A stretch of DNA of 64,000 nt from Chloroflexota bacterium (GTDB lineage: Bacteria > Chloroflexota > Limnocylindria > Limnocylindrales > CSP1-4), in contig PLLE01000046.1 in NCBI GenBank assembly GCA_003141245.1, positions 62,841 to 126,840 of the forward strand. The letters run 5' to 3'. The first letter of the stretch is position 1; every line of letters begins with the position of its first letter. Position numbers and translations under genes: made by a program. The notes below the pieces were generated by a model, which had not been told where the DNA came from, searched no databases, and was given only the letters and a program-made list of their open reading frames with translations. This document shows positions 5,186-41,820 of this stretch, piece after piece.

Positions 5186-5872
5186 CTAGTAGCGCCGGCC
5201 CTTCTGTCGGGCGAAGTCGAACTTGGCCGTGTCGGCGATCCCCATGACCGCCATCGTGCCGGCCTGGACCGGGTCAGTGACCACCAGGTCCGCTACGTCC
5301 GGAACTGTGCCGGCCATGTTCAGCGAGATGACCGGAATCCCGAGCGTCTGAATCTCCTGGACCGCCCTGGTGATGTCGCCGCCCATGATCGAACCGGCGA
5401 GCAGGAGGGCTCGAGCCCGGTCGAGGTCGGCGACCGCCCGGACGGCCGCCGCGAGGTTCTCCTCGCCGACGAGCGGAATCGTGTCGACGCTGATCTTCTC
5501 GCCACGGAGGTTGTGGCGGTCCGCTTCGCTGACGGCCCCCAGCACGGCCTGGGCGATCTGCGCCCCGCCGCCGATGACGATGAGCCGTTTGCCGAAGACC
5601 CTGTCCAGGGACTTGGTCTTGCGGCAGCCCCGAAGGCCCGGCAGCTTGTCGAAGATCTCGGTGACGCGCTCGTCGGCCAGGCCTTCGACCTCCAGCTCGA
5701 TCTCGACCAGAGGCCCCGCCTCGGGGTCCGTCCAGCGGCGAACGGTGCTGAGAGTTCTGACGGTGCCGCCGGCCGCAGCCACTTGAGTGGCGATCTCCGC
5801 GATCGCGGCCGGGCGGTCGGCGTAGTCGAGGCGGACGGCGACGGTTGGGGAGGTGTGCTCGGTGCGCGCCAT
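5186..5872 (-). CDS. ACT-like N-terminal domain protein with C-terminal 'LIVIGGGAQIAQ' nucleotide-binding-like domain, function unknown
   Basis: The track ORF runs to 6166, but its first 98 aa are Arg/His-rich junk. The ATG at 5872 gives 228 aa starting 'MARTEHTSPTVAVRLDY'. Confidence 0.6.
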   Translation of the reverse strand: MARTEHTSPTVAVRLDYADRPAAIAEIATQVAAAGGTVRTLSTVRRWTDPEAGPLVEIELEVEGLADERVTEIFDKLPGLRGCRKTKSLDRVFGKRLIVIGGGAQIAQAVLGAVSEADRHNLRGEKISVDTIPLVGEENLAAAVRAVADLDRARALLLAGSIMGGDITRAVQEIQTLGIPVISLNMAGTVPDVADLVVTDPVQAGTMAVMGIADTAKFDFARQKGRRY

Positions 5873-5877
5873 CTCGT

Positions 5878-6159
5878 CTAGCTCCCGGCGCCCATGCCGC
5901 GATCGGTCAGGCCGGTCGCCCGCGACATCTCGTCGAGCGTGAGGCCCGCCTCGGGATCGTGCTCCTCGAACCCGAGCTTGAGCGACTCGAAGGCCTCTCG
6001 GGTTCCGGCCGCGTCGCTCGTGGTGAGCATGAGCGCGCCGTCGGTGTCCTCGGCGATCCCGACTATGGCCGTGATGTTGATGCCTCGCTCGCCGAGTGCC
6101 GTCGCCATACGCGCCAGCGCCCCGGGCTTGTCGTCGAGCTGAACGGTGAACCAGATCAC
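5878..6159 (-). CDS. small ACT-domain protein
   Basis: GTG at 6159 is preceded by GGAGGAGG (complement of 6166-6173). 'VIWFTVQLDDKPGALARMATALGERGINITAI' has the ACT beta-alpha-beta pattern. Confidence 0.65.
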   Translation of the reverse strand: MIWFTVQLDDKPGALARMATALGERGINITAIVGIAEDTDGALMLTTSDAAGTREAFESLKLGFEEHDPEAGLTLDEMSRATGLTDRGMGAGS

Positions 6160-6255
6160 GCCGCACCTCCTCCGTGGATGGTACCTGCTTGCGGGGCCGC
6201 GAGGACAGCGCCGAGAGCCGAGCCGCTCCGCGATCGCGTCGTTACTCTTCTCGCG

Positions 6256-6630
6256 ATGCCAGCACTCGCAGGACCCACCGTTCAGATGTTCGGGCTCGCC
6301 GACTCGCGCTCGACGCAGGCGGCGCTGCGGTTCTTCAAGGAGCGCCGCGTCAACGTCACGTTCGTCGACCTGAGACGCAAGCCGATCGCGCCAGGGGAGT
6401 TGCGCCGTTTCGTGGCGCGGCTGGGCGCGGCCTCGCTGCTGGACACGGAGGGGCGCCAGTACAAGGACCTGGGCCTGGGCTACATGCGGCTGGGCGACGA
6501 CGAGATCGTGGAGCGGCTGCTCGCCAACAACGGGCTGCTTCGGCTGCCCCTCGTGCGTTTCGGCAACGCATTCACCGCCGGCCCGGCCGACGCCACGTGG
6601 AAGACCTGGCTCGCCGGAACCGCGAAGTAG
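6256..6630 (+). CDS. ArsC/Spx/YffB-family thioredoxin-fold protein (no N-terminal Cys)
   Basis: 'VQMFGLADSRSTQAALRFFKERRVNVTFVDLRRKP...LLRLPLVRFGN' follows the family layout. The usual Cys position reads 'ADSRST'. Start is 6256 or 6286. Confidence 0.6.
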   Translation: MPALAGPTVQMFGLADSRSTQAALRFFKERRVNVTFVDLRRKPIAPGELRRFVARLGAASLLDTEGRQYKDLGLGYMRLGDDEIVERLLANNGLLRLPLVRFGNAFTAGPADATWKTWLAGTAK

Positions 6631-6713
6631 GCGCACCGCCGGAGACGCCTGGGCCGAAGCGGGGCTGGACCTGCTTTCAGGAGTCCTTGAGGAAGACGCC
6701 ATAAGATAAGGGC

Positions 6714-7250
6714 ATGGCCGAAATATCAGGACATGCCATAACGTTCGGTGAAATCGAGGCTCACGTTCAGGCGTTGGGTCAGCTCATGCCGAAGGGGCCG
6801 CCGGATTGGGCCAACAACGACCTCACGTTCGGCCAGCTGCGGCTTCTCTTCGTGCTTGGCCAATCCGGGCCCGTCTCGATCGGTCAGCTCGCCGACATGC
6901 TGGGTGTGACCGACGCTACCGCCTCGGAATTCGTCGATCGCGTGGAGCGCCGCGGTCTCGCCATCCGCAGCCACCGCGCCGACGACCGGCGCGTGGTCGA
7001 TTGCCGGCTAAGCGACGAAGGCGCTCGTCTGCTGGCTGAGATCCGGGGTGCCCGGCGAGAGGCCTTGCGACAGGTGCTCGCGCTCCTAACCGCCGCAGAG
7101 CTGGCCGAATTCGACCACTTGCTTCAAATCATGGCCGAGCGTTTGTCGGCCGCATTCCCATCGTCCGCCTCGACGGAAGGAGAGCCTCAAGTGAATCCCG
7201 GAACGCCACCCGCGAGCCCGGCACAGGATGCCGGCCGAGGACCGGCATGA
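6714..7250 (+). CDS. MarR-family transcriptional regulator
   Basis: Winged HTH 'GPVSIGQLADMLGVTDATASEFVDRVERRGLAIRSHRADDRRVV'. ATGA overlap with the downstream ABC ATPase. Confidence 0.8.
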   Translation: MAEISGHAITFGEIEAHVQALGQLMPKGPPDWANNDLTFGQLRLLFVLGQSGPVSIGQLADMLGVTDATASEFVDRVERRGLAIRSHRADDRRVVDCRLSDEGARLLAEIRGARREALRQVLALLTAAELAEFDHLLQIMAERLSAAFPSSASTEGEPQVNPGTPPASPAQDAGRGPA

Positions 7251-8254
7251 GCGGCATGGACGGCCTCGCCCTGGCGACTCGCGGCTTGCGCAAGAGCTAC
7301 GGATCCCGGCGCGCGCTCGACGGCCTAGACCTGTCGGTCCCGGCGGGCGTGGTCTACGGCTTCCTCGGCCCAAACGGCGCCGGCAAGACGACGACCATGC
7401 GAGTCCTGACCGGGCTGATCCACGCCGACGGCGGCACGGTCGAGCTGCTCGGCAGGCCGTTCAAGCGTGGAGATCGCCATCGCCTGTTCGAGGTGGGAGC
7501 GCTTGTCGAAGCGCCGACCTTCTACCCGTACCTCTCGGCCCGCGCCAACCTCCGTGAGCTGGCTGCCTCCGGCGCTCCGGTGCCTTCGAAGCGCATCGAG
7601 GAAGTGCTCGACCTCGCCGGTCTGTGCGACCGCGCCAACGACAAGGTCCAGGGTTACTCGATGGGCATGAAGCAGCGGCTCGGCATCGCGGCGGCGCTGC
7701 TCAGCGATCCCAAGTTGCTGCTGCTCGACGAGCCCGCCAACGGTCTCGACCCGGCCGGCATCGTGGCCATGCGCGACACGCTCAAGGCGCTCGCATCCCA
7801 GGGCAAGACGGTCTTCGTCTCAAGCCACCTCCTGGCTGAGATCCAGGTCATGGCCGATGTCGTGGGCATCATCGCGGCAGGAAAGCTGGTTCGCGAGGGT
7901 CCGCTGAAGGAACTCCTGTCGATGCAGGGAGTCGTCAAGGTCCGTGTCCGGCCGAACCTGGTGGACGCCGCCATCGAGACGCTCGCTCCCCTCGCCCCGG
8001 CCGAACGGCTCACTGAGACGGATCGCGATGAGGGCTGGCTGGCCGTGCGCCTCGCCACCGATCGCGCGGAGGAGGTCAATCAGAAGCTGGCCGGCGCGGG
8101 CATCTACGCCTCCGGCCTGGAGTCGGGCACCGACCTGGAGATGCTCTTCCTGGAGTTGACGGGCGGTCAGGGACCCTCGGGTGGCGAGGGTGCGTTCGTC
8201 GGCTTGGGCGGGCTCAACGGCGGCGCCCCCGCCGGAAAGGGGACCGCGGCATGA
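7247..8254 (+). CDS. ABC transporter ATP-binding protein
   Basis: Walker A 'GPNGAGKTT', signature 'YSMGMKQRL', Walker B 'LLLLDEP'. Confidence 0.9.
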   Translation: MSGMDGLALATRGLRKSYGSRRALDGLDLSVPAGVVYGFLGPNGAGKTTTMRVLTGLIHADGGTVELLGRPFKRGDRHRLFEVGALVEAPTFYPYLSARANLRELAASGAPVPSKRIEEVLDLAGLCDRANDKVQGYSMGMKQRLGIAAALLSDPKLLLLDEPANGLDPAGIVAMRDTLKALASQGKTVFVSSHLLAEIQVMADVVGIIAAGKLVREGPLKELLSMQGVVKVRVRPNLVDAAIETLAPLAPAERLTETDRDEGWLAVRLATDRAEEVNQKLAGAGIYASGLESGTDLEMLFLELTGGQGPSGGEGAFVGLGGLNGGAPAGKGTAA

Positions 8255-33285: not shown

Positions 33286-33468
33286 ATGACCGACGACGGC
33301 TGGTTCGGCGAGGACGTGGCAGCCACCTACGATCAGGACGCGCCGATGTTCGACCCGGCGGTGCTCGAGCCCGCGGTCGCGTTCCTCGCGGCACTCGCCG
33401 GCGATGGTCCGGTGCTGGAATTCGCCATCGGCACCGGCCGCATCGCCTTGCCGCTGGCGGCCGACCGA
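33286..33468 (+). pseudogene. 5' fragment of a class I SAM-dependent methyltransferase, truncated at the repeat/island junction
   Basis: 'FGEDVAATYD...LEFAIGTGRIALPLAA' is the N-terminus plus motif I (xGxGxG-like). The reading frame then runs into repeat-derived 'TFTRIVSARLLSPR' and stops. Confidence 0.6.
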
Positions 33469-33511
33469 ACCTTCACCCGTATAGTGTCGGCCCGACTCCT
33501 CTCGCCCCGAC
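33468..33511. repeat. 44-bp direct repeat, copy 1
   Basis: aacCttcacccgtatagtgtcggc...ctcctctcgccccgac. 40 of 44 positions are identical to copy 2. It contains GTGTCGG...CCGACAC. Confidence 0.85.
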
Positions 33512-33851
33512 ACTCTCGCCCCGACCACTTACAGGTGAACTGAACTCCGCCGGGAGCACCGCCGCGAAGCCATGGCGGACCGCGTGCTCACTGAGATACG
33601 CCGTGGCCTCGCGCACCCGTCGCGCGGAAGAGCAAACGATGCAGGCCCTCGGGTGGACTAGATGCGCCCATCGCAGGACGATACCTCCCCCGGGTGCCGG
33701 GTCGTGTCTGGCAGTCGGCCGCCACCCTCTCGGCAGCCGGCTGATCGCTCCGCGGCTCCCATCCTGCTGACTCGCGCGCTGCGGGTCGTCTACGATGGGC
33801 GCGGCTAGGCAGGCGGTCCGCCTGGCGCCGGGCAATCCGACGGAGAGACGG

Positions 33852-35498
33852 ATGAGCGGGGAACCGAACCTCCTCTACTACGGCGACAACCTCGACGTGC
33901 TGCGACGGCATGTCCGCGACGAGTCGGTCGATCTCGTCTACCTCGACCCGCCGTTCAACTCAAACGCGAATTACAACGTGCTGTTCGCCGAACATGGCAC
34001 ACGGGCGGCCGCGCAGATACAGGCGTTCGAGGACACGTGGGAGTGGAACGAGGAGTCAGCGGCGACATATCAGGAAACCGTCGAGCGCGGTGGCGAGGTC
34101 GCCAATGCGCTCTTGTCGTTCAGGACCCTGATCGGGACGTCGGACATGCTGGCGTACCTGTCGATGATGGCCCCGCGGCTTGTCGAGCTGCATCGCGTCC
34201 TCAAGCCGATCGGCTCGCTCTATCTGCACTGCGACCCGACCGCGAGCCACTATCTCAAGCTCCTGCTCGACGCGGTGTTCGGCCCGCAGAACTTCCGGAG
34301 CGAGATCATCTGGAAGCGGACTAGCGGACACAGCGACGCACGCGGCTACGGGGCGGTGCATGACGTGCTGCTCTACTACGTTGCGTCGGACGCCGCGACT
34401 TGGAACCGAATCTTCCAGGCTTACGATCCCGGTTATGTCGAGCAGTACTACCGCTATGCGGACCCCAATGGCCGCAAGTTCATGTCGGGCGACATCTCGG
34501 CGGCCGGGCTGTCCGGGGGCGGTTACGAGTACGAATGGCGCGGCGTTACGAGGGTTTGGCGTGTTCCGCTGACGAGCATGGAGAAGCTCGAAGGTGAGGG
34601 CCGGGTCTTCTACACGAAGAACGGCATTCCACGACTGAAGCGCTACCTCGATGAGTCCAAGGGACTCCCGGCCCAGGACGTCTGGGCCGACATCGAGCCG
34701 CTGCGATCTTGGCACGCCGAGAGGCTCGGATACCCGACACAGAAGCCGCTCGCGCTCGCCGAACGCCTCATCGAAGCGTCCTCTGGCCCTGGCGATGTCG
34801 TCTTGGACCCCTTCTGCGGCTGCGGCACGACTATCGACGCGGCGCAGGCCCTCGGGCGTCGCTGGATCGGAATCGACATCACGCACCTGTCCATCGGCCT
34901 CATCAAACACCGGCTGACTGATCGCTATGGCCCGGAGATCGCGAAGACATACAAGGTTGTCGGCGAACCTACGACGGCCGACGATGCAGCTGTCCTGGCG
35001 CGCGAGGACCCGTTCCAGTTCCAGGCGTGGGCGCTCGGCCTCGTGGGCGCGAGGGTGGCCGGGAGCGACAAGAAGGGCGGCGACAAGGGGATCGACGGCC
35101 GCCTCTACTTCCACGACTCGGCAGGCGGCCAGACCCGACAGATCGTGTTCTCCGTCAAGGCGGGCGAGCACCTCGTGCCGGCTTACGTGAACGAGCTACG
35201 CGGCGTGATCGAGCGCGAGCATGCCGACATCGGCGTGCTCATCACGTTCAAGGAACCAACGGCCGGCATGCGATCGGAGGCTGCCGGCGCGGGCTTCTAC
35301 ACCTCGCCATGGGGGAACCACCCACGGCTCCAACTCCGGACTGTCGGCCAATTGCTCACCGGCCAGGGCGTCGACTACCCGCACGTCACGGGCTCCAACG
35401 TGACGCACCGCCGCGCCGTTCCCGCCCGGCCAAACGCTCCCGAGACGATAGGTCTATTCGAGCGGGCCGCAGAGGAGCCGGAGGAGTACGGCTCCTAG
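33852..35498 (+). CDS. beta-class N6A/N4C DNA methyltransferase fused to a C-terminal Mrr-like (PD-(D/E)xK) nuclease domain
   Basis: Motif IV 'DLVYLDPPFNS' precedes motif I 'VLDPFCGCGTT'. C-terminus 'GGDKGIDGRLYF...IVFSVKAG'. ATG 33852 with a GGAGAGA RBS. Confidence 0.85.
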   Translation: MSGEPNLLYYGDNLDVLRRHVRDESVDLVYLDPPFNSNANYNVLFAEHGTRAAAQIQAFEDTWEWNEESAATYQETVERGGEVANALLSFRTLIGTSDMLAYLSMMAPRLVELHRVLKPIGSLYLHCDPTASHYLKLLLDAVFGPQNFRSEIIWKRTSGHSDARGYGAVHDVLLYYVASDAATWNRIFQAYDPGYVEQYYRYADPNGRKFMSGDISAAGLSGGGYEYEWRGVTRVWRVPLTSMEKLEGEGRVFYTKNGIPRLKRYLDESKGLPAQDVWADIEPLRSWHAERLGYPTQKPLALAERLIEASSGPGDVVLDPFCGCGTTIDAAQALGRRWIGIDITHLSIGLIKHRLTDRYGPEIAKTYKVVGEPTTADDAAVLAREDPFQFQAWALGLVGARVAGSDKKGGDKGIDGRLYFHDSAGGQTRQIVFSVKAGEHLVPAYVNELRGVIEREHADIGVLITFKEPTAGMRSEAAGAGFYTSPWGNHPRLQLRTVGQLLTGQGVDYPHVTGSNVTHRRAVPARPNAPETIGLFERAAEEPEEYGS

Positions 35499-35927: not shown

Positions 35928-35971
35928 AACGTTCACCCGTATAGTGTCGGCTCTCCTCCTCTCGCCCCGAC
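35928..35971. repeat. 44-bp direct repeat, copy 2
   Basis: aacGttcacccgtatagtgtcggc...ctcctctcgccccgac. It abuts an ORF that has no proper 5' end. Confidence 0.85.
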
Positions 35972-36538: not shown

Positions 36539-38017
36539 CTACTCCCAGCCGGCGGTGCCAATCTGGTAGAGGTCCGGCGGACAGCGCAATTCGCGGTATG
36601 TTCCCTTCGTCGATGCAATGAGGGCGTACCCAGGGACATGGAAGGCGAGGCCCTTGGGATCGAGCTCGCTCGACGTGGAATCGAACACGGCCTCTCCGAG
36701 CACGCAGTCGGTCCGTCCAGCGTCTCGTGCGCGTCGATCAACCGCTTCTACGACCCAAACGAAGCGAGGGAACCTGGCCATCCTGTATTCGCGAGCGACC
36801 GCGTTGGGCATCCGTCGCATCGCCTCGTCTTTGAAATGGTTAGCGGAGGTCGCGTAGGTACGAAAGGCGAGAGCACCCGCGGAGATGCAGTCACTAAGGG
36901 CTTTGGCATCTGGAACCGCCGCTTGCACCATCGAGGCAATCTGCTGCAGGAACGTGGCGCCCACGCCTTCCGCGGGTTCGGGCGGCAGCCAGAGCTTCTC
37001 GGGCAGCGGGACGACCAGGGCCGTCCAGGGCGAGTACCGGTAACCGTTGACCCCCACGTCGTTGAAGACTGACTTCACGGGTTGATATGGACCGAGTTGA
37101 TCGTCCTGCCGAACAAACTCGATCCACGAGCCGCCGCTTGGGTTTGGCGTGCGCCGGTAACCGACGAGCACAAAGGCGTGTTCGCCGTTCCCCACGAGGA
37201 CTGGGATTCCAGAATTCAGATACCTACAGATCGTACCGAAGAGCTTTGTGTTCCACAGTCCACCATGGAGCTGCTTCCCGTTGGCATCCACCACGGGGAT
37301 CGGGTCCGGCGGTGCACAAGGAGGCGTGGGTTCGACGGTCTTGAGTGCGTCGACGTCGTATAGGCGAGCCGGCAAGTCGAAGACTCGGAATAGTTCAACC
37401 AGCTGTCCAACGGTCAGCCCTTCGGAGGGCACTGGACGCGTGGGGCTCATCGAGGGGTTCGACATGAGATTGAAGGCAGCGATCGGCCGTCTCGGGACGA
37501 TGCCCCTCCTGTGAGCCACGTAGTGGCAGACCCAGGCGGCAGCGTGGGCGCATCGGTCCAGTTGGGCGTCCTGCTCCATAAACGGGACGGCTCGGATCGA
37601 GATTGTCTGGCCGAAGAAGTGGACGTTCTCTTGAATCGTAGTCAGAACGGCATCGTCAAGACCTGGAGGCGGTGCCAGCATGGTTCTGCCCACTCGACCG
37701 AGCTGCGTTGGCGGCCGAACCACCATGTACCCGAGGTAACCTGCGTCGACGGGGATCTCCCACAGCCGATCAGGCGAGATCGGGCCTTTGAAGAAGTGGA
37801 GTCGATGGGCCGTGTCGTAATGCGTGGAAAACGCCCGAGCGTGGAACGCGACGTACTCGCTCCGGAAGTCCGGGTCGATATATCTCGTCTCGATGACGAC
37901 TGTGAGCGCCCCGGCAGCCTTGGCAACGTCTAGACAATGCTTTAGAGGGTCGGGATTCCGGGCAGGGTACTGGCCTAGAAGCCACGTCCAGTCTCTTGGA
38001 TGTGCCAGGATGCGCAC
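36539..38017 (-). CDS. predicted papain-like (C39-like) cysteine peptidase with unknown N- and C-terminal domains
   Basis: 'QDAQLDRCAHAAAWVCHY' (Q..C), 'GNGEHAFVLVGY' (His) and 'FVRQDDQLGPY' (Asp) occur in papain-fold order. No HExxH. The track start at 38119 adds an Arg/Pro-rich head that overlaps a better small ORF. Confidence 0.5.
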   Translation of the reverse strand: MRILAHPRDWTWLLGQYPARNPDPLKHCLDVAKAAGALTVVIETRYIDPDFRSEYVAFHARAFSTHYDTAHRLHFFKGPISPDRLWEIPVDAGYLGYMVVRPPTQLGRVGRTMLAPPPGLDDAVLTTIQENVHFFGQTISIRAVPFMEQDAQLDRCAHAAAWVCHYVAHRRGIVPRRPIAAFNLMSNPSMSPTRPVPSEGLTVGQLVELFRVFDLPARLYDVDALKTVEPTPPCAPPDPIPVVDANGKQLHGGLWNTKLFGTICRYLNSGIPVLVGNGEHAFVLVGYRRTPNPSGGSWIEFVRQDDQLGPYQPVKSVFNDVGVNGYRYSPWTALVVPLPEKLWLPPEPAEGVGATFLQQIASMVQAAVPDAKALSDCISAGALAFRTYATSANHFKDEAMRRMPNAVAREYRMARFPRFVWVVEAVDRRARDAGRTDCVLGEAVFDSTSSELDPKGLAFHVPGYALIASTKGTYRELRCPPDLYQIGTAGWE

Positions 38018-38057
38018 CTTCGCGGGATCGGGATCCTCCCACGCCCCCCGCCGCACG

Positions 38058-38249
38058 TCAGCCCAGCCGCAATGTCGAGGCGTCGGCCTCGGCCTTGCGG
38101 CGCGCACGGGCCTGCTCATCGAGCTTCTTCTCGATGGCGCGCCTTTGCTCCCTATCGAACAGATCCATGGGGTCTCGGAGTCCGCCGAGCTTGGATCCTT
38201 GGATGGGGGTCAACTCAGGCAGCACGGAGCGGGGCTGCGGCCGAGCCAT
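38058..38249 (-). CDS. small charged helical protein, unknown function
   Basis: 63 aa. ATG 38249 is preceded by AGAGGAGAGA with 5 nt spacing. 'DPMDLFDREQRRAIEKKLDEQARARRKAEADA'. Confidence 0.45.
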   Translation of the reverse strand: MARPQPRSVLPELTPIQGSKLGGLRDPMDLFDREQRRAIEKKLDEQARARRKAEADASTLRLG

Positions 38250-38293
38250 TTGTCTCTCCTCTGAGGCTGACGGTGCTCTCTGGGGACGCTCGC

Positions 38294-38686
38294 CTATTCT
38301 GAGCCCCCGTCAAGCGACTCGCTCGCCAGGATCGCGTCATAGATGAAGCGCCATCGTTGCGCGCTCACGGGCGCCTTGCCCGCAACCCGAAGCCCGGCGA
38401 GCACCTGGACCTCGGAGGTGGGTATCCGTCGTTCCTCGGCCACGCGCCGCAGGCCATCTGGGATGTCGGCTGGCATGGACGAGCCCTGGAGCAGGGGCCC
38501 AAGCACGTCCTCAAGGCGTTGCAGGGCGTCGGCCCCGGGCCGACGGGTCCGGCCATGCTCTATTGCGTTGATATAGGCCCTGGAGAGCCCGGTTCGGCGC
38601 GAGACCTCAGCCAGGCTCCATGACTTGCGCGAGCGGGCGTCGACTATGCGTCTGCCGAGTTTCGAGCCCGCCTCATCTGTCAGCAA
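38294..38686 (-). CDS. XRE-family HTH transcriptional regulator
   Basis: 'RKSWSLAEVSRRTGLSRAYINAIEHGR' is an HTH_3 motif. The upstream 65 aa of the track ORF overlap the Ubl gene on the opposite strand. I use TTG 38686 (GGAG 9 nt upstream). Start is uncertain. Confidence 0.75.
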   Translation of the reverse strand: MLTDEAGSKLGRRIVDARSRKSWSLAEVSRRTGLSRAYINAIEHGRTRRPGADALQRLEDVLGPLLQGSSMPADIPDGLRRVAEERRIPTSEVQVLAGLRVAGKAPVSAQRWRFIYDAILASESLDGGSE

Positions 38687-38689
38687 CTG

Positions 38690-38718
38690 TTGACACTCCA
38701 GTCCGCTATTGCTACGAT
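38690..38718 (+). promoter_or_regulatory. sigma-70-like promoter for the Ubl operon
   Basis: TTGACA (38690-38695), a 17-nt spacer, then TACGAT (38713-38718), about 50 nt upstream of ATG 38768. Confidence 0.5.
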
Positions 38719-38732
38719 GTCTGCAATCGTAG
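38712..38732. promoter_or_regulatory. candidate operator: perfect 7-bp inverted repeat overlapping the -10 box
   Basis: CTACGAT-gtctgca-ATCGTAG. The palindrome AGACGTCT follows at 38737-38744. Confidence 0.4.
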
Positions 38733-38767
38733 ACAAAGACGTCTGTTTTGGCAATAGGAGAACGGAA

Positions 38768-39043
38768 ATGGCCCACAAGCTGAACCTGAGCATCAGGGCG
38801 ACGAACGGAGCCCAGTGGGAGACCGACGAGTTCGGGCTCAACCAGCGGGTCGATCATGTTCGTAAAGCAGCCGAGAAGCATTTCGAGCAGGCGGGAGAGA
38901 TGTCGCCCGGCGACTACCTCCTCGGCCTTGTGGTCGATGGCACGATCCAGGACCTGATCGACTCGGAGAAACTTGAGGACGCAGGCATCAAGGACGGTTC
39001 CGTGCTTGTGCTCAAGCCCCGCGGCGGCCAGGTGGACGGCTAG
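38768..39043 (+). CDS. ubiquitin-like (beta-grasp) protein with C-terminal RGG-QVDG
   Basis: 91 aa with an AGGAGA RBS. 'DLIDSEKLEDAGIKDGSVLVLKPRGGQVDG' parallels the ubiquitin C-terminus (..LVLRLRGG). First gene of the E2/JAB/E1 operon. Confidence 0.75.
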   Translation: MAHKLNLSIRATNGAQWETDEFGLNQRVDHVRKAAEKHFEQAGEMSPGDYLLGLVVDGTIQDLIDSEKLEDAGIKDGSVLVLKPRGGQVDG

Positions 39044-39469
39044 ATGAAGCCCGAGCTAGCCGAGGAACTTCTCGATGGAGAGCTTGAAGTAGTCCGGGAC
39101 TCCATCAGCTCCCGCGGGGTGACGGTCTGGCGCGAGGGTACGGACGTGTTCGTGCAATTCGAACACGGTCGGGATGGGAATCCCGGGGTATTCAGACTCG
39201 CCTGTGGACAGTTCGACGCCGAGTCGCCCTCGGTGTCGATGGTCGACCCCACAGCGCACACCGAGCTGTCGATGGAGCAGTGGACGCCGGGCGTGCCGCA
39301 CAGCGTCCATCCCCTCACGGGCAAGCCGTTTGTGTGCCTGCAAGGGACCGCCGAATATCACACGCATCCCTCGCACCTCGCTGACAGTTGGGACCGCTAC
39401 CGTCGCGTCTTCCGGCTAAAGGAGACGGTCCACCGGCTTCTCCAGAAAGCGGGGGTTGCTGACGTATGA
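39044..39469 (+). CDS. UBC-like E2 ubiquitin-conjugating-enzyme homologue
   Basis: 'VHPLTGKPFVCLQG' mirrors the eukaryotic HPN...G.(I/V)CL catalytic-Cys motif. The start immediately follows the Ubl stop (TAGATG). Confidence 0.7.
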   Translation: MKPELAEELLDGELEVVRDSISSRGVTVWREGTDVFVQFEHGRDGNPGVFRLACGQFDAESPSVSMVDPTAHTELSMEQWTPGVPHSVHPLTGKPFVCLQGTAEYHTHPSHLADSWDRYRRVFRLKETVHRLLQKAGVADV

Positions 39470-39927
39470 TCCTCCACCTTTCCCGAAAGGCACTCGAGGA
39501 GGCCCGGCTCTTCTTCGAAGAGGCCGGTTCGCGCGGCTGCGAGGGAACTGGGATGCTGGCCGGAGTTCGCCTCGTCGACGGATGGCGCGCGGAGCGATTT
39601 CTGGCGCCCGAGCAGAGGGCGTCCGCGGGACCAGGCGTTTGGGTGGAGGTCGCAGATCGCGGCAAGGCCCAGATCGCGACGGCCCTCGGGCCAGGCGAGC
39701 TCTGGATCGCGCGGATCCACTCCCACCCGGGCGCGGCATTCCACAGTGCGACCGACGACAGCAATCCAGTCATCACCGCTGAGGGATCGTGGTCGATAGT
39801 CGTTCCCTACTTCGGGCTGGGCCTTCGGCGCGGGGCGGCTGCCTGCGCCTTCTTCATCAGGCAGGGTGGCAGGTGGCGCCAGGTCGCCCCAGATGATGTC
39901 GAGAGGTGTGTCCGTGTCGGAGCGTGA
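39466..39927 (+). CDS. JAB/MPN (JAMM) metallopeptidase
   Basis: Glu in 'GCEGTGML' and 'IHSHPGAAFHSATD' (HxH...S..D). ATGA overlap with E2. Confidence 0.85.
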   Translation: MILHLSRKALEEARLFFEEAGSRGCEGTGMLAGVRLVDGWRAERFLAPEQRASAGPGVWVEVADRGKAQIATALGPGELWIARIHSHPGAAFHSATDDSNPVITAEGSWSIVVPYFGLGLRRGAAACAFFIRQGGRWRQVAPDDVERCVRVGA

Positions 39928-41407
39928 CCTCGACCCTCGGACCGGACTCGTCCCAGGCCCCGGCGCGGCCGCACTGCTGCGCCGACTGGACTCGACCCGA
40001 GTACTGATTCGGACCACGGCCGACAGTGGCGCCCTGGCGCTGTCGCTCGCAAACCATCTGGTGCGCATATGCCCGAGCGTCGCTGTCGATGCTCCGCCAA
40101 TCGGCGTGAACCTGCCAGTCTTCGGTATGGGGACGCTGCCCGAGCTGGCGGCCCGTCTTCTAAACCAAGCACGGATCGGGCGAGCTGAGGGAGCGGAAGG
40201 CCCGGCGAACCTTGTCATCGGCGTCGGTGACGTCACCGCAGGAGCAGACCTCTACGTCTCCGCCAACGGGTGGTCGCTGCGGCTTAGCGTCGATCCCCAC
40301 GAACCCTTGGCCGGCAGAGGCCCGGCCGTCTCGGCAGCTGCGGCCCTCGCGGCGGCCGAGGTATTCAGGCGACTGCTGCCCGAACTGCCCGGGGTCCGGC
40401 TGGCTCGCGATTTCGAGTGGAACCTCTGCGATTACCGGACGCGCGTTTCGGAGGCCTTTCCGCCCGCAGCGCCAGTGGACGCCGTGTGCTTCGGCGCGGG
40501 ATCCGTGGGCTCCTCTCTTGTCCTTGCACTGCTGCTAAGCAGGGCTATGGGGGATCTGGTGGTCGTTGATGACGACCGGCTTGAGTCTCGCAACCGACTC
40601 AAGTACCCCGCCTGGATCGGAGAACCGGGCGTGCGCGCAAAGGTCGACTGGCTCCAGGGCCTGGCCCTAGGAACTTCCCTTCGGGTGACCCCTTACCACG
40701 GAAGCTGCGCCGATTGGCAGGAATCGGGCCCATCCGCCCCGGCGATGGCAGTCGCAGCGGTAGACACCAGGGAGGGCCGGAGGCAAGTAGCCGACGTCCT
40801 CGCCAGGGAGACCCTCAACGCTGGCATCGAGGGACTGGCGATGCACGTGAGCCGGAATCGCTTCGGGGACGGGCTGGCATGTGTGTATTGCCCTTACGTC
40901 GACACGTCCGACAGGGCCTCTGAGACCGATGTCCTCCGCGAACTCACCGGGCTGGATTCCGCCAGACTGCTGGAACTCCTCGGCGGGTCCAAACTCACGG
41001 CTGAGGACGTGAATCGGATGGTCGCCGGCGGCAGGCTATCGGAGGCCGACTTCGATCTCGTAGGCGGGCGCATTGGCGATGTGGCCAGGGCAAGGTTGTA
41101 CGCCGGCGCAAGAGTCAAGACAGGAAGCGGGATCGCCGAGGTGAATGCCCCGTTCGTCCCAGCGTTGGCTGGCGCCATCCTCGCCGCCGAGATGCTCAAA
41201 GCGCCTGGCTCCGCAGCGGTTCTCGATCGACGGGTGGACGTTGACTGCTCAGGGCTTCCGACCGGCTGGACGAGCAGGCCAGTTGCCGACCCGTCTGGGC
41301 GCTGCCTCTGTCACAGCCAGGTCCGGCGTCGCGCGTACCTCAGAGCCTGGCCCAAGGAGTATCCGCCGGCCGGAGTCGCCGAGCCTAAAGGAAACATGAA
41401 GCGATGA
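39914..41407 (+). CDS. ThiF/MoeB-type E1-like adenylating enzyme with N-terminal extra domain
   Basis: 'VCFGAGSVGSSLVLALLL...LVVVDDDRLESRNRLKY' is a Rossmann fold plus the Arg finger region. CxxC in 'ACVYCPY' and 'RCLCH'. GTG 39914 follows GAGAGG. ATG 39893/39896 are alternatives. Confidence 0.85.
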   Translation: MSERDLDPRTGLVPGPGAAALLRRLDSTRVLIRTTADSGALALSLANHLVRICPSVAVDAPPIGVNLPVFGMGTLPELAARLLNQARIGRAEGAEGPANLVIGVGDVTAGADLYVSANGWSLRLSVDPHEPLAGRGPAVSAAAALAAAEVFRRLLPELPGVRLARDFEWNLCDYRTRVSEAFPPAAPVDAVCFGAGSVGSSLVLALLLSRAMGDLVVVDDDRLESRNRLKYPAWIGEPGVRAKVDWLQGLALGTSLRVTPYHGSCADWQESGPSAPAMAVAAVDTREGRRQVADVLARETLNAGIEGLAMHVSRNRFGDGLACVYCPYVDTSDRASETDVLRELTGLDSARLLELLGGSKLTAEDVNRMVAGGRLSEADFDLVGGRIGDVARARLYAGARVKTGSGIAEVNAPFVPALAGAILAAEMLKAPGSAAVLDRRVDVDCSGLPTGWTSRPVADPSGRCLCHSQVRRRAYLRAWPKEYPPAGVAEPKGNMKR

Positions 41408-41820
41408 GCACCTCGTCCGCGCCCGAGCGCGAGTTGGCTGACTTCCTTGCCACGTGGACACGTCGTCGCCCTGGATGGCAGTTCGTCGGTACGGGCGGAA
41501 ACCGGAGGTTGCGTTCCGCCGAAGCGCTAGCCCGCGACCTCCTCGATGACGCGGAATTCGCGGAGTTCAGAGTCGCGGAATGGCTACGCACCCCAGAGGG
41601 GAGAATCGTCGAAGCAGCCGTCTCCCAGGTCCTACCATGGCCCGGGTCGGCGGAGTTTCAGCTCCTGGTCGAGGCGATATCCCTCGCGGCGAAGGCGAAG
41701 GCGAAGGCGAAGGCGAAGCAGAGGCAGCACATACGATTTGCGCTGCGGTTGCCCCTGCCTTGGACCATGTCGGTCTGGTGGCGTGGCTTTCCGGTCCAAC
41801 TTGCCTGCGGTGAGAGTTAG
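41404..41820 (+). CDS. hypothetical protein translationally coupled to E1
   Basis: 138 aa with an ATGA overlap to E1 and an AAGGA RBS. It contains the (AK)5 repeat 'AAKAKAKAKAKQ'. No family recognised. Confidence 0.5.
   Translation: MSTSSAPERELADFLATWTRRRPGWQFVGTGGNRRLRSAEALARDLLDDAEFAEFRVAEWLRTPEGRIVEAAVSQVLPWPGSAEFQLLVEAISLAAKAKAKAKAKQRQHIRFALRLPLPWTMSVWWRGFPVQLACGES

Follow-up and report, generated by a model that had tools for sequence, protein, structure and literature searches.

A conserved small protein and a predicted clan-CA peptidase form a two-gene unit that may be an accessory of bacterial ubiquitin-like conjugation systems

In a 64,000-nucleotide (nt) stretch of contig PLLE01000046.1 from a Chloroflexota bacterium (hereafter, the window), open reading frame (ORF) and gene calls place three minus-strand genes within positions 36539-38686, all reading away from a plus-strand operon for a ubiquitin-like protein (Ubl) and its conjugation enzymes. 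These genes encode an XRE-type helix-turn-helix (HTH) protein, a 63-amino-acid (aa) protein and a large protein, here called BIG, and the subject of this report is the pair formed by the latter two. Their number and common orientation agree with the first-pass annotation of this DNA, which had put the large protein at about 490 aa; it is in fact 505 aa long from the GTG at 38056, taken as the start since homologues share the N-terminus MxxxxWEDPDP. The description of the small ORF as charged and preceded by a strong ribosome-binding site also held, as its product has an isoelectric point of 10.4 and an AGGAG box lies 6 nt before its ATG. The GTG of BIG begins 1 nt past the TGA of the small ORF. 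The features of the window and the arrangements of related loci (numbered L001 onwards) are collected in Table 1.

Table 1. Features of the window and arrangements of related loci. Positions are those of the window unless a locus is named.
Feature	Positions	Strand	Remarks
XRE/CapH-like HTH protein	38294-38686	minus	TTG start, 130 aa; 130-aa call also in public contigs
Small partner ORF	38058-38249	minus	ATG start, 63 aa
BIG, predicted cysteine peptidase	36539-38056	minus	GTG start, 505 aa; stop at 36539-36541
BIG N-domain	37577-38056	minus	residues ~1-160
BIG papain-like core	37007-37576	minus	residues ~160-350
BIG C-domain	36542-37006	minus	residues ~351-505
Q162, D163 ... C169	37550-37573	minus	predicted oxyanion-hole Gln and catalytic Cys, start of predicted helix
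QLDRCAHAAAW	37564-37532	minus	starts at BIG residue 165
GEHAFVLVGY	37186-37157	minus	starts at BIG residue 291
RQDDQLGPY	37111-37085	minus	starts at BIG residue 316
H293; D318/D319	37178-37180; 37100-37105	minus	predicted catalytic His and Asp, adjacent beta-strands
Divergent control region	38687-38767		81 bp between XRE and Ubl genes
Ubl-operon promoter-like site	-35 at 38690; -10 ending 38718		TTGACA; TACGAT
XRE-operon promoter-like site	-35 at 38754; -10 ending 38726		TTGCCA; TACGAT
Palindrome CTACGAT-N7-ATCGTAG	38712-38732		between -10 boxes of both promoter-like sites
Imperfect inverted repeat	38697-38712 / 38751-38766		in 81-bp spacer
Type II BilABCD-like operon	38768-41407	plus	Pfam and PADLOC matches, gene calls
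Ubl	38768-39043	plus	91 aa, ends PRGGQVDG
CEHH-type E2	39044-39469	plus	Pfam Metal_CEHH 2.4e-6; PADLOC BilB 4e-4
JAB peptidase	39466-39927	plus	Pfam Prok-JAB 1e-4; PADLOC BilC 3.5e-9
E1	~39914-41407	plus	Pfam ThiF 0.011; PADLOC BilD 1.4e-7
138-aa ORF	41404-41820	plus	overlaps E1 stop; KAKAKAKAK run; no family match
44-nt direct repeat	33468-33511; 35928-35971		91% identical
Apparent truncated SAM-methyltransferase ORF	33286-33543		...GPVLEFAIGTGRIALPLAA...
DNA methylase-Mrr_cat fusion	33795-35498	plus	N6/N4 DNA methylase, Pfam 7e-42
Type A			HTH-small-BIG divergent from Type II Bil-like operon; window, L001-3, L010, L024, L031-40, others
Type B			trio divergent from Type II Bub (Multi_ubiq BubA, DUF6791-ThiF BubBD, BubE); e.g. 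L023, L026, L053, L085
Type C			HTH, M78/IrrE-like metallopeptidase, small, BIG in one operon; divergent partner operon Multi_ubiq, 118-aa protein, JAB-ThiF fusion (Type I Bub-like); e.g. L025, L006 (Mycobacterium sp. TY814), L015 (Nocardioides sp. YR527), L068
HTH-M78 fusion with small-BIG			L066
Type D			HTH on opposite strand, divergent from small-BIG; no Ubl genes; L004, L008, L009, L013, L014, L019, L022, L042, L046, L090
Convergent with Ubl operon			named: L012, L055, L108, Mesorhizobium plasmid
Co-directional at 3' end of Ubl operon			L087 (after BubCD), L109
P. aeruginosa plasmid p4782_002			L109; CapP-CapH <-> BubA-BubBD-BubE-small-BIG
~720-aa BIG members	L109 (P. aeruginosa p4782_002) 5830-8010; L110 (Shewanella baltica pS19501) 5890-8049		
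278-aa protein	L022 9583-10419; L009 9512-10354; L014 partial		3' of BIG

The 63-aa ORF is a genuine gene: its position and its sequence are conserved in 42 loci. In these non-redundant actinobacterial loci a small ORF lies directly 5' of BIG, at a distance of -11 to +29 nt, and the 42 encoded proteins have in common a vLP motif, a charged stretch (LL(T/S)xxQRxxLxxxLxxxARxRRxAExxS) and a tail. The window protein shows the same layout, with the vLP motif at its N-terminus, the conserved charged middle and the C-terminal tail ...RRKAEADASTLRLG-stop. A tail of the form [LMI][RKQ][LMFV][GSA]-stop is found in 38 of the 42 proteins (LRLS in 10, LRLG in 8 and LRLA in 7), and the window protein ends TLRLG. 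Synonymous-only codon differences between the window ORF and two close relatives outnumber non-synonymous ones (14 versus 8 and 24 versus 16), indicating that purifying selection acts on the ORF. The protein had no match among the models of Pfam, NCBIfam or PADLOC.

The pairing is not confined to Actinomycetota. All four PLSDB plasmids that carry a BIG homologue (from Mesorhizobium, Pseudomonas, Shewanella and Hymenobacter) have an ORF of 52-60 aa annotated just 5' of it, and a small ORF also precedes BIG in L029 and L087. The plasmid-encoded small proteins end in ...FALR, ...TCSL, ...RYNR and ...RARL. As judged from these sequences, the ubiquitin-tail-like ending of the small protein is an actinobacterial feature, whereas the pairing itself crosses phyla. 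The 63-aa protein is an obligate, conserved partner of BIG, an association missed by the first-pass annotation. No natural small-BIG fusion was found among N-terminally extended relatives, and mutual information between the last residue of the small protein and the columns of the BIG alignment picked out only highly variable, lineage-driven columns, none of them near the active site.

The three motifs in which a papain/C39-like order of residues had been noticed are all located in BIG, and the residues concerned are strongly conserved. Q162, D163, C169, H293, D318 and D319 do not vary among 42 family members, nor in a 10-sequence cross-phylum alignment (18-48% identity) that includes the Mesorhizobium, Pseudomonas, Shewanella and Hymenobacter proteins, so that their invariance spans Actinomycetota, Pseudomonadota and Bacteroidota; conservation of the proposed triad was one of the points on which the earlier proposal hung. 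The residue order is that of clan CA, with a Gln a few residues ahead of a Cys that opens a helix, followed by His and Asp on adjacent strands, and the papain/C39 order suggests catalytic roles for Q162, C169, H293 and D318. In the N-domain, E56, Y59, R85, H87 and F88 are invariant. Close homologues (at least 414; about 500 aa) are conserved end to end, and an exhaustive profile search returned 4427 cluster representatives (50% identity) at E<=1e-3, with 938 at <=1e-30. The pair spans at least three phyla.

Despite this breadth, the family is poorly covered by existing models. The window protein goes unmatched in NCBIfam, PADLOC and Pfam, in the last even at E<=10, a threshold at which 41 relatives likewise gave nothing; distant members have no NCBIfam match, and phmmer and profile searches against all Protein Data Bank (PDB) sequences returned nothing. 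Searches of viral contigs and GenBank phages turned up no relatives. The P. aeruginosa homologue, which is connected to the window protein by tblastn (E 6e-7), matches the Pfam family Peptidase_C39_2 (PF13529) at 3.9e-5 and 24.7 bits, against a cut-off of 24. HExxH is absent from all three minus-strand proteins, as had been claimed, and BIG has no Pfam match to Peptidase_M78.

An AlphaFold2 (AF2) model of BIG (pLDDT 89.3, pTM 0.91) places C169 at the head of a helix (residues 169-183), with strands 294-304 and 310-318 carrying or adjoining H293 and D318. In a Foldseek search of the PDB with this model, the first 18 places were all occupied by papain-fold peptidases, namely UfSP2, ZUFSP/ZUP1, Caenorhabditis elegans UfSP, staphopain and C39 or C39-like enzymes (probabilities 0.63-0.99, E 1e-3 to 8e-2, TM 0.2-0.5). 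The best match was UfSP2 (3oqc; E 1e-3, probability 0.99), and ZUFSP (7oje/6fge) and UfSP (5xda) were also among them. The papain-like fold anticipated from the motifs is thereby borne out by structure prediction. Taken together, the UfSP, ZUFSP and C39 fold matches and the Peptidase_C39_2 score imply that the central domain of BIG is a clan-CA peptidase, and the conserved residues and the model indicate that it is very probably catalytically active. The N-domain modelled alone (pLDDT 81) had no PDB match with an E-value under 0.8, and MYST/GNAT-like hints were weak (probability at most 0.13), in line with the earlier description of the flanking domains as unknown. A Foldseek search of viral structures gave nothing significant.

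Two variants of the family were noted. Gammaproteobacterial members of about 720 aa have a common C-terminal extension of about 200 aa without a family match, and a metagenomic relative of 670 aa (P0234) bears a SEFIR/TIR domain at its N-terminus (Pfam 1e-13 and 6e-12). In P0234 the peptidase His and Asp and the N-domain motif are degenerate, and it looks like a pseudo-peptidase version carrying a different effector.

The papain fold also hosts transglutaminases and deamidases of ubiquitin and NEDD8, and Pup is a small modifier that could serve as a model for one outside the beta-grasp fold. The small protein might accordingly be such a modifier or carrier, with BIG acting as a ligase, transpeptidase, deamidase or transglutaminase. 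A length of about 60 aa, a free C-terminal tail that in Actinomycetota is invariant and closes with G, S or A, and the fact that the best structural matches of BIG are peptidases that grip Ubl tails would all suit this idea. However, domain searches detected no ATP-using domain in BIG, the last residue may be G, S, A or C, and conservation of the tail does not extend beyond Actinomycetota. We therefore regard it as very improbable.

To survey the genomic surroundings of the pair, profile searches seeded from the window were combined with gene calls carrying Pfam labels to annotate 107 loci. Of 48 non-redundant loci whose upstream sequence reaches at least 3 kb, approximately 26 have an E1/ThiF Ubl operon in the fetched flank, so that the co-occurrence with Ubl systems first seen in the window extends to about half of the loci. 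Four Ubl operon types were counted, among them Type II Bil, Type II Bub and Multi_ubiq with JAB-ThiF (Type I Bub-like), and the pair may be divergent from, convergent with or co-directional with its Ubl operon. Type B loci carry BubE as a separate gene, and JAB-ThiF operons adjoining the pair are mostly without BubE. The Bub-like operons of three type C loci (L025, L006 and L068) and of L087 were observed to have no detectable BubE/DUF6527 gene. According to Ye et al., BubE is present in all Bub operons.

The repeated association with four operon types in three phyla, independent of gene arrangement, the location of the pair next to BubE or in its stead, with adjoining JAB-ThiF operons mostly lacking that gene, and the structural kinship of BIG to peptidases that grip Ubl tails lead us to propose that the small protein and BIG constitute an accessory peptidase-plus-partner module of Ubl-conjugation systems. 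The unit would be a conserved two-gene module, rather than an HTH-protease pair, in which the small protein is translationally coupled to a three-domain clan-CA (C39/UfSP-like) peptidase, and BIG, with its obligate small partner, would represent a new peptidase family and, for Bil/Bub-type systems, a new accessory. We put the probability of this reading at roughly 0.4. A literature search found no description of the small-BIG module, and the pair is not mentioned in the published Bil/Bub part lists consulted (Ubl, E2, E1, JAB, BubE and Cap regulators).

The loci without Ubl genes fit a different explanation. In type D loci the HTH gene and the pair stand by themselves, with no conserved cargo found beside them, and in L029 and on the Shewanella and Hymenobacter plasmids the pair stands alone. 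The neighbours of the pair include restriction-modification (RM) systems, abortive infection (Abi)-like genes, integrases, transposases and one caspase-family gene, an immune context that, like the SEFIR/TIR domain of P0234, also counts in favour of the accessory module. These mobile and defence surroundings, together with a small charged protein tightly coupled 5' of a large enzyme, as in antitoxin-toxin pairs, and the SEFIR/TIR fusion with its degenerate His and Asp, which resembles an effector swap, would be expected of a self-contained tripartite toxin-antitoxin-like or abortive-infection effector, in which BIG is a toxic protease, the small protein its antitoxin or inhibitor and the HTH protein the regulator; such a unit would often share a promoter region with Ubl operons in defence islands. 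This explanation best accounts for type D and the solitary pairs, but not for the specificity towards Ubl operons: chance co-location poorly explains E1-operon adjacency in about half of the loci, in three phyla and with four operon types, including insertion at the 3' end of Bub operons. A MazE match of one small ORF was not significant (E 0.0065, 16.6 bits, cut-off 108). We consider it doubtful, although it is the strongest of the rival explanations. In three related type D loci, a 278-aa protein without a Pfam match lies 3' of BIG, and in one of them (L022) it is followed on its 3' side by a Type I restriction-modification system.

The HTH gene bears on yet another model, which the first-pass annotation had put first, namely that BIG is a cysteine counterpart of CapP/ImmA. 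In such a model, BIG would cleave the XRE protein upon a signal of infection or damage and so de-repress the Bil operon, with the small protein as a gate. An HTH gene is adjacent to the pair in most actinobacterial loci, and in types A and B the trio has the place and orientation of capH-capP beside Type II Bil and Bub operons (bioRxiv 10.1101/2023.09.26.559546). The XRE protein of the window matches the PADLOC capH model, the two additional conserved domains of BIG could sense a signal, and regulators such as CapK/CapS are strongly enriched at Bub operons and also occur stand-alone (PMC13373217). Against this, BIG shows neither M78 similarity nor HExxH, which are defining for CapP. An M78 peptidase of the CapP kind accompanies the pair in type C, in L066 and on the P. 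aeruginosa plasmid, and thus in three lineages or more; on that plasmid and on the Mesorhizobium one, the pair lies at the end of the operon far from the HTH gene; L012, L055, L087 and L108 have no adjacent HTH gene, and other pairs have only a divergent HTH gene or none; a type D unit would regulate nothing; and the two HTH subtypes have no common candidate cleavage motif. A CapP-like role for BIG is thus unlikely. The alternative that had been held in reserve, a second Ubl peptidase or the effector of the system, fits these observations better.

The accessory-module reading has its own difficulties, and the following points weigh against it. About half of the loci have no Ubl or E1 gene within 6-8 kb, which implies that the peptidase can work without an adjacent Ubl system. 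The structural matches of BIG are marginal (E ~1e-3, TM 0.2-0.34) and involve the central domain only, although the low TM-scores are explained by the fact that only the central third of the protein matches. The C-termini of the adjacent Ubls (PQVDG; KATGKS; [AP]VA) do not resemble LRLG or the small protein's tail in general, and a simple specificity for Ubl tails is therefore disfavoured. The small ORFs of Pseudomonadota and Bacteroidota end in R or L and have no detectable similarity to the actinobacterial ones, so that a tail docked in the cleft of BIG cannot be a general mechanism. Lastly, CapK+CapS regulator pairs lie mostly beside Bub operons and also have stand-alone, toxin-linked forms (PMC13373217), and given this precedent, a regulatory role is compatible with the enrichment at Ubl operons.

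In the window, the Ubl-E2-JAB-E1 gene set and its order match the Type II BilABCD (CEHH/6C) definition (bioRxiv 10.1101/2023.09.26.559546). All of the profile scores are weak, and the operon is accordingly a diverged Type II Bil member; the same operon type occurs in L001-3, L010, L024 and L031-40. The Ubls of type A loci (window, L001, L010, L024 and L031-40) nearly all end exactly in ...PQVDG or GGQVDG, and with no extension after the Gly, the Ubls of this Bil subtype are seemingly made in mature form. In the stop-to-stop Ubl ORFs of L002 and L037, the frame runs on past the Gly. For many Type II BilA proteins, by contrast, the literature describes up to nine further residues. The 138-aa ORF that follows E1 in the window was seen only in near-identical contigs and not in other Bil-type loci.

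The divergent control region holds two back-to-back sigma-70-like promoter sites, where shuffling gave an expectation of 0.4, and the palindrome in the spacer is a candidate operator. The XRE protein matches Pfam HTH_31 (2.2e-9) and HTH_3 (6.2e-9), and its match to PADLOC capH (4.1e-10) covers residues 8-67 only, that is, the HTH part. Its designation as a repressor, made at the outset, becomes a likely role, exerted on both divergent operons. The remaining C-terminal domain of about 65 aa (in the 38294-38500 half of the gene; ...LxxLR[VI]xGxxP...RWRFIYDAL.ASE) has no family assignment, is conserved across type A loci and is confined to HTH proteins beside Bil-type loci, whereas those of types B, C and D end differently (...EERKAVAAFIxHLRxQR). 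The LxxLR[VI]xG segment of the Bil-type HTH proteins, which resembles LRLG, was considered as a cleavage site and rejected, since Arg is frequent at its variable position and the motif is missing from the second HTH subtype.

Based on these data, the accessory module might work as follows. The XRE protein would repress both divergent operons through the spacer palindrome, so that the peptidase module and the Ubl machinery would be made together. The small protein and BIG would be produced in matched amounts and form a complex, as their tight coupling and strict co-occurrence suggest. Papain-type enzymes favour a hydrophobic P2 residue, and Ubl and C39 peptidases favour a small P1 residue. In Actinomycetota, the free hydrophobic-Arg-hydrophobic-small tail may occupy the BIG cleft as a bound product or pseudo-substrate and, once docked, may keep BIG latent or set its specificity, a step to which the tails of other phyla lend no support. 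Through C169, H293 and D318, BIG would then act as a peptidase, as conservation and fold predict, and its gene neighbourhoods suggest that it may remove or process Ubl conjugates, or cut a target after the Ubl system has acted. A more elaborate version, in which the TLRLG C-terminus plugs a UfSP/ZUFSP-like active site until the Ubl machinery or a phage factor frees the protease for an immune response, or in which, as a variant, the small protein is a non-beta-grasp modifier, seems to us quite unlikely.

Bil and Bub are bacterial relatives of the eukaryotic ubiquitin and ISG15 pathways, and the kinship of BIG to UfSP and ZUFSP in structure would bear on the prokaryotic origins of Ubl-specific proteases. 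If Ubl conjugates are the substrate or the trigger of BIG, it could supply a missing step in switching off or killing; if it is autonomous, the pair would be a new protease-based defence or addiction module. Were the tail to act as a plug or the small protein as a modifier, this would endow Bil and Bub with a hitherto unknown arm for output or control, and the module itself would amount to a widespread immune protease in stand-alone form. The partner protein and the catalytic residues offer direct experimental handles.

The trio and the Bil operon lie in an island of lower GC content (0.62-0.66, at roughly 33.8-41.8 kb) in a window of otherwise ~0.68-0.71, with glycogen-metabolism genes on both sides. 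Just past BIG, within the same island, is a gene in which an N6/N4 DNA methylase is fused to a C-terminal Mrr_cat / NA-iREase1 restriction-endonuclease-like domain. A 44-nt direct repeat flanks a 2.46-kb segment that includes the DNA methyltransferase gene and an 83-aa ORF, and its left copy breaks an apparent truncated S-adenosylmethionine (SAM)-methyltransferase ORF. This segment may be an insertion with duplicated ends.

Among known systems, one close in layout is CapH+CapP (ImmR/ImmA-type), the regulators of cyclic oligonucleotide-based antiphage signalling systems (CBASS), Bil and Bub. Here too an XRE HTH gene heads the protease operon and is divergent from the Bil operon it would control, as in CapH/ImmR, across a short common promoter region, an arrangement found in the window in the form of the PADLOC capH and HTH_31/HTH_3 matches and the 81-bp spacer. 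CapP, however, is an M78 zinc metallopeptidase with HExxH, whereas BIG is a predicted papain-fold enzyme with Cys, His and Asp; moreover, an obligate small partner goes with BIG, true M78 genes occur alongside it, and some of its loci are remote from any HTH gene.

In structure, the best matches of the BIG model are UfSP1/UfSP2 and ZUFSP/ZUP1 of family C78, and both BIG and these enzymes are tied, by genetics or by function, to Ubl pathways. The catalytic order of ZUFSP is likewise Cys...His...Asp. The core of ZUFSP is described as preferring the peptide RLRGG (PMC8776766), and the small protein here ends TLRLG. Unlike the C78 enzymes, BIG has N- and C-domains without a counterpart, its TM-scores are only 0.2-0.34, and the tails of the adjacent Ubls differ from LRLG; phmmer and profile searches against PDB sequences and Pfam found no homology to UfSP/ZUFSP. 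The C39 and C39-like (PF13529) peptidases, which cut double-glycine leaders, have the same papain core order of Gln...Cys...His...Asp. The substrates of C39 enzymes, short helical leaders with a small residue at their end, loosely resemble the small partner of BIG. In contrast to C39, BIG is not fused to an ABC transporter, is cytoplasmic by sequence and has two extra domains, and its partner stops at the would-be cleavage site with no cargo and has Leu, Met or Phe rather than Gly at P2.

BilC (JAB) and BubE (DUF6527, Ser-His) are, like BIG, peptidases whose genes are kept with Ubl/E1/E2 operons, and in L087 and L109 the small-BIG pair lies at or beside the BubE position. The fold and catalytic type of BIG are unrelated to either, with no Pfam match to the BubE family PF20137, and BIG needs a partner gene and is found alongside BilC, alongside BubE and without any Ubl operon. 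PaaR2-PaaA2-ParE2 is a tripartite toxin-antitoxin system with a transcriptional regulator, and together with the staphopain-staphostatin operon, whose staphopain is among the structural matches of BIG, it resembles the present trio in combining an HTH regulator, a small charged protein and a larger enzyme in tight coupling. The specific association with Ubl operons, by comparison, is seen with the small-BIG pair but not with those modules.

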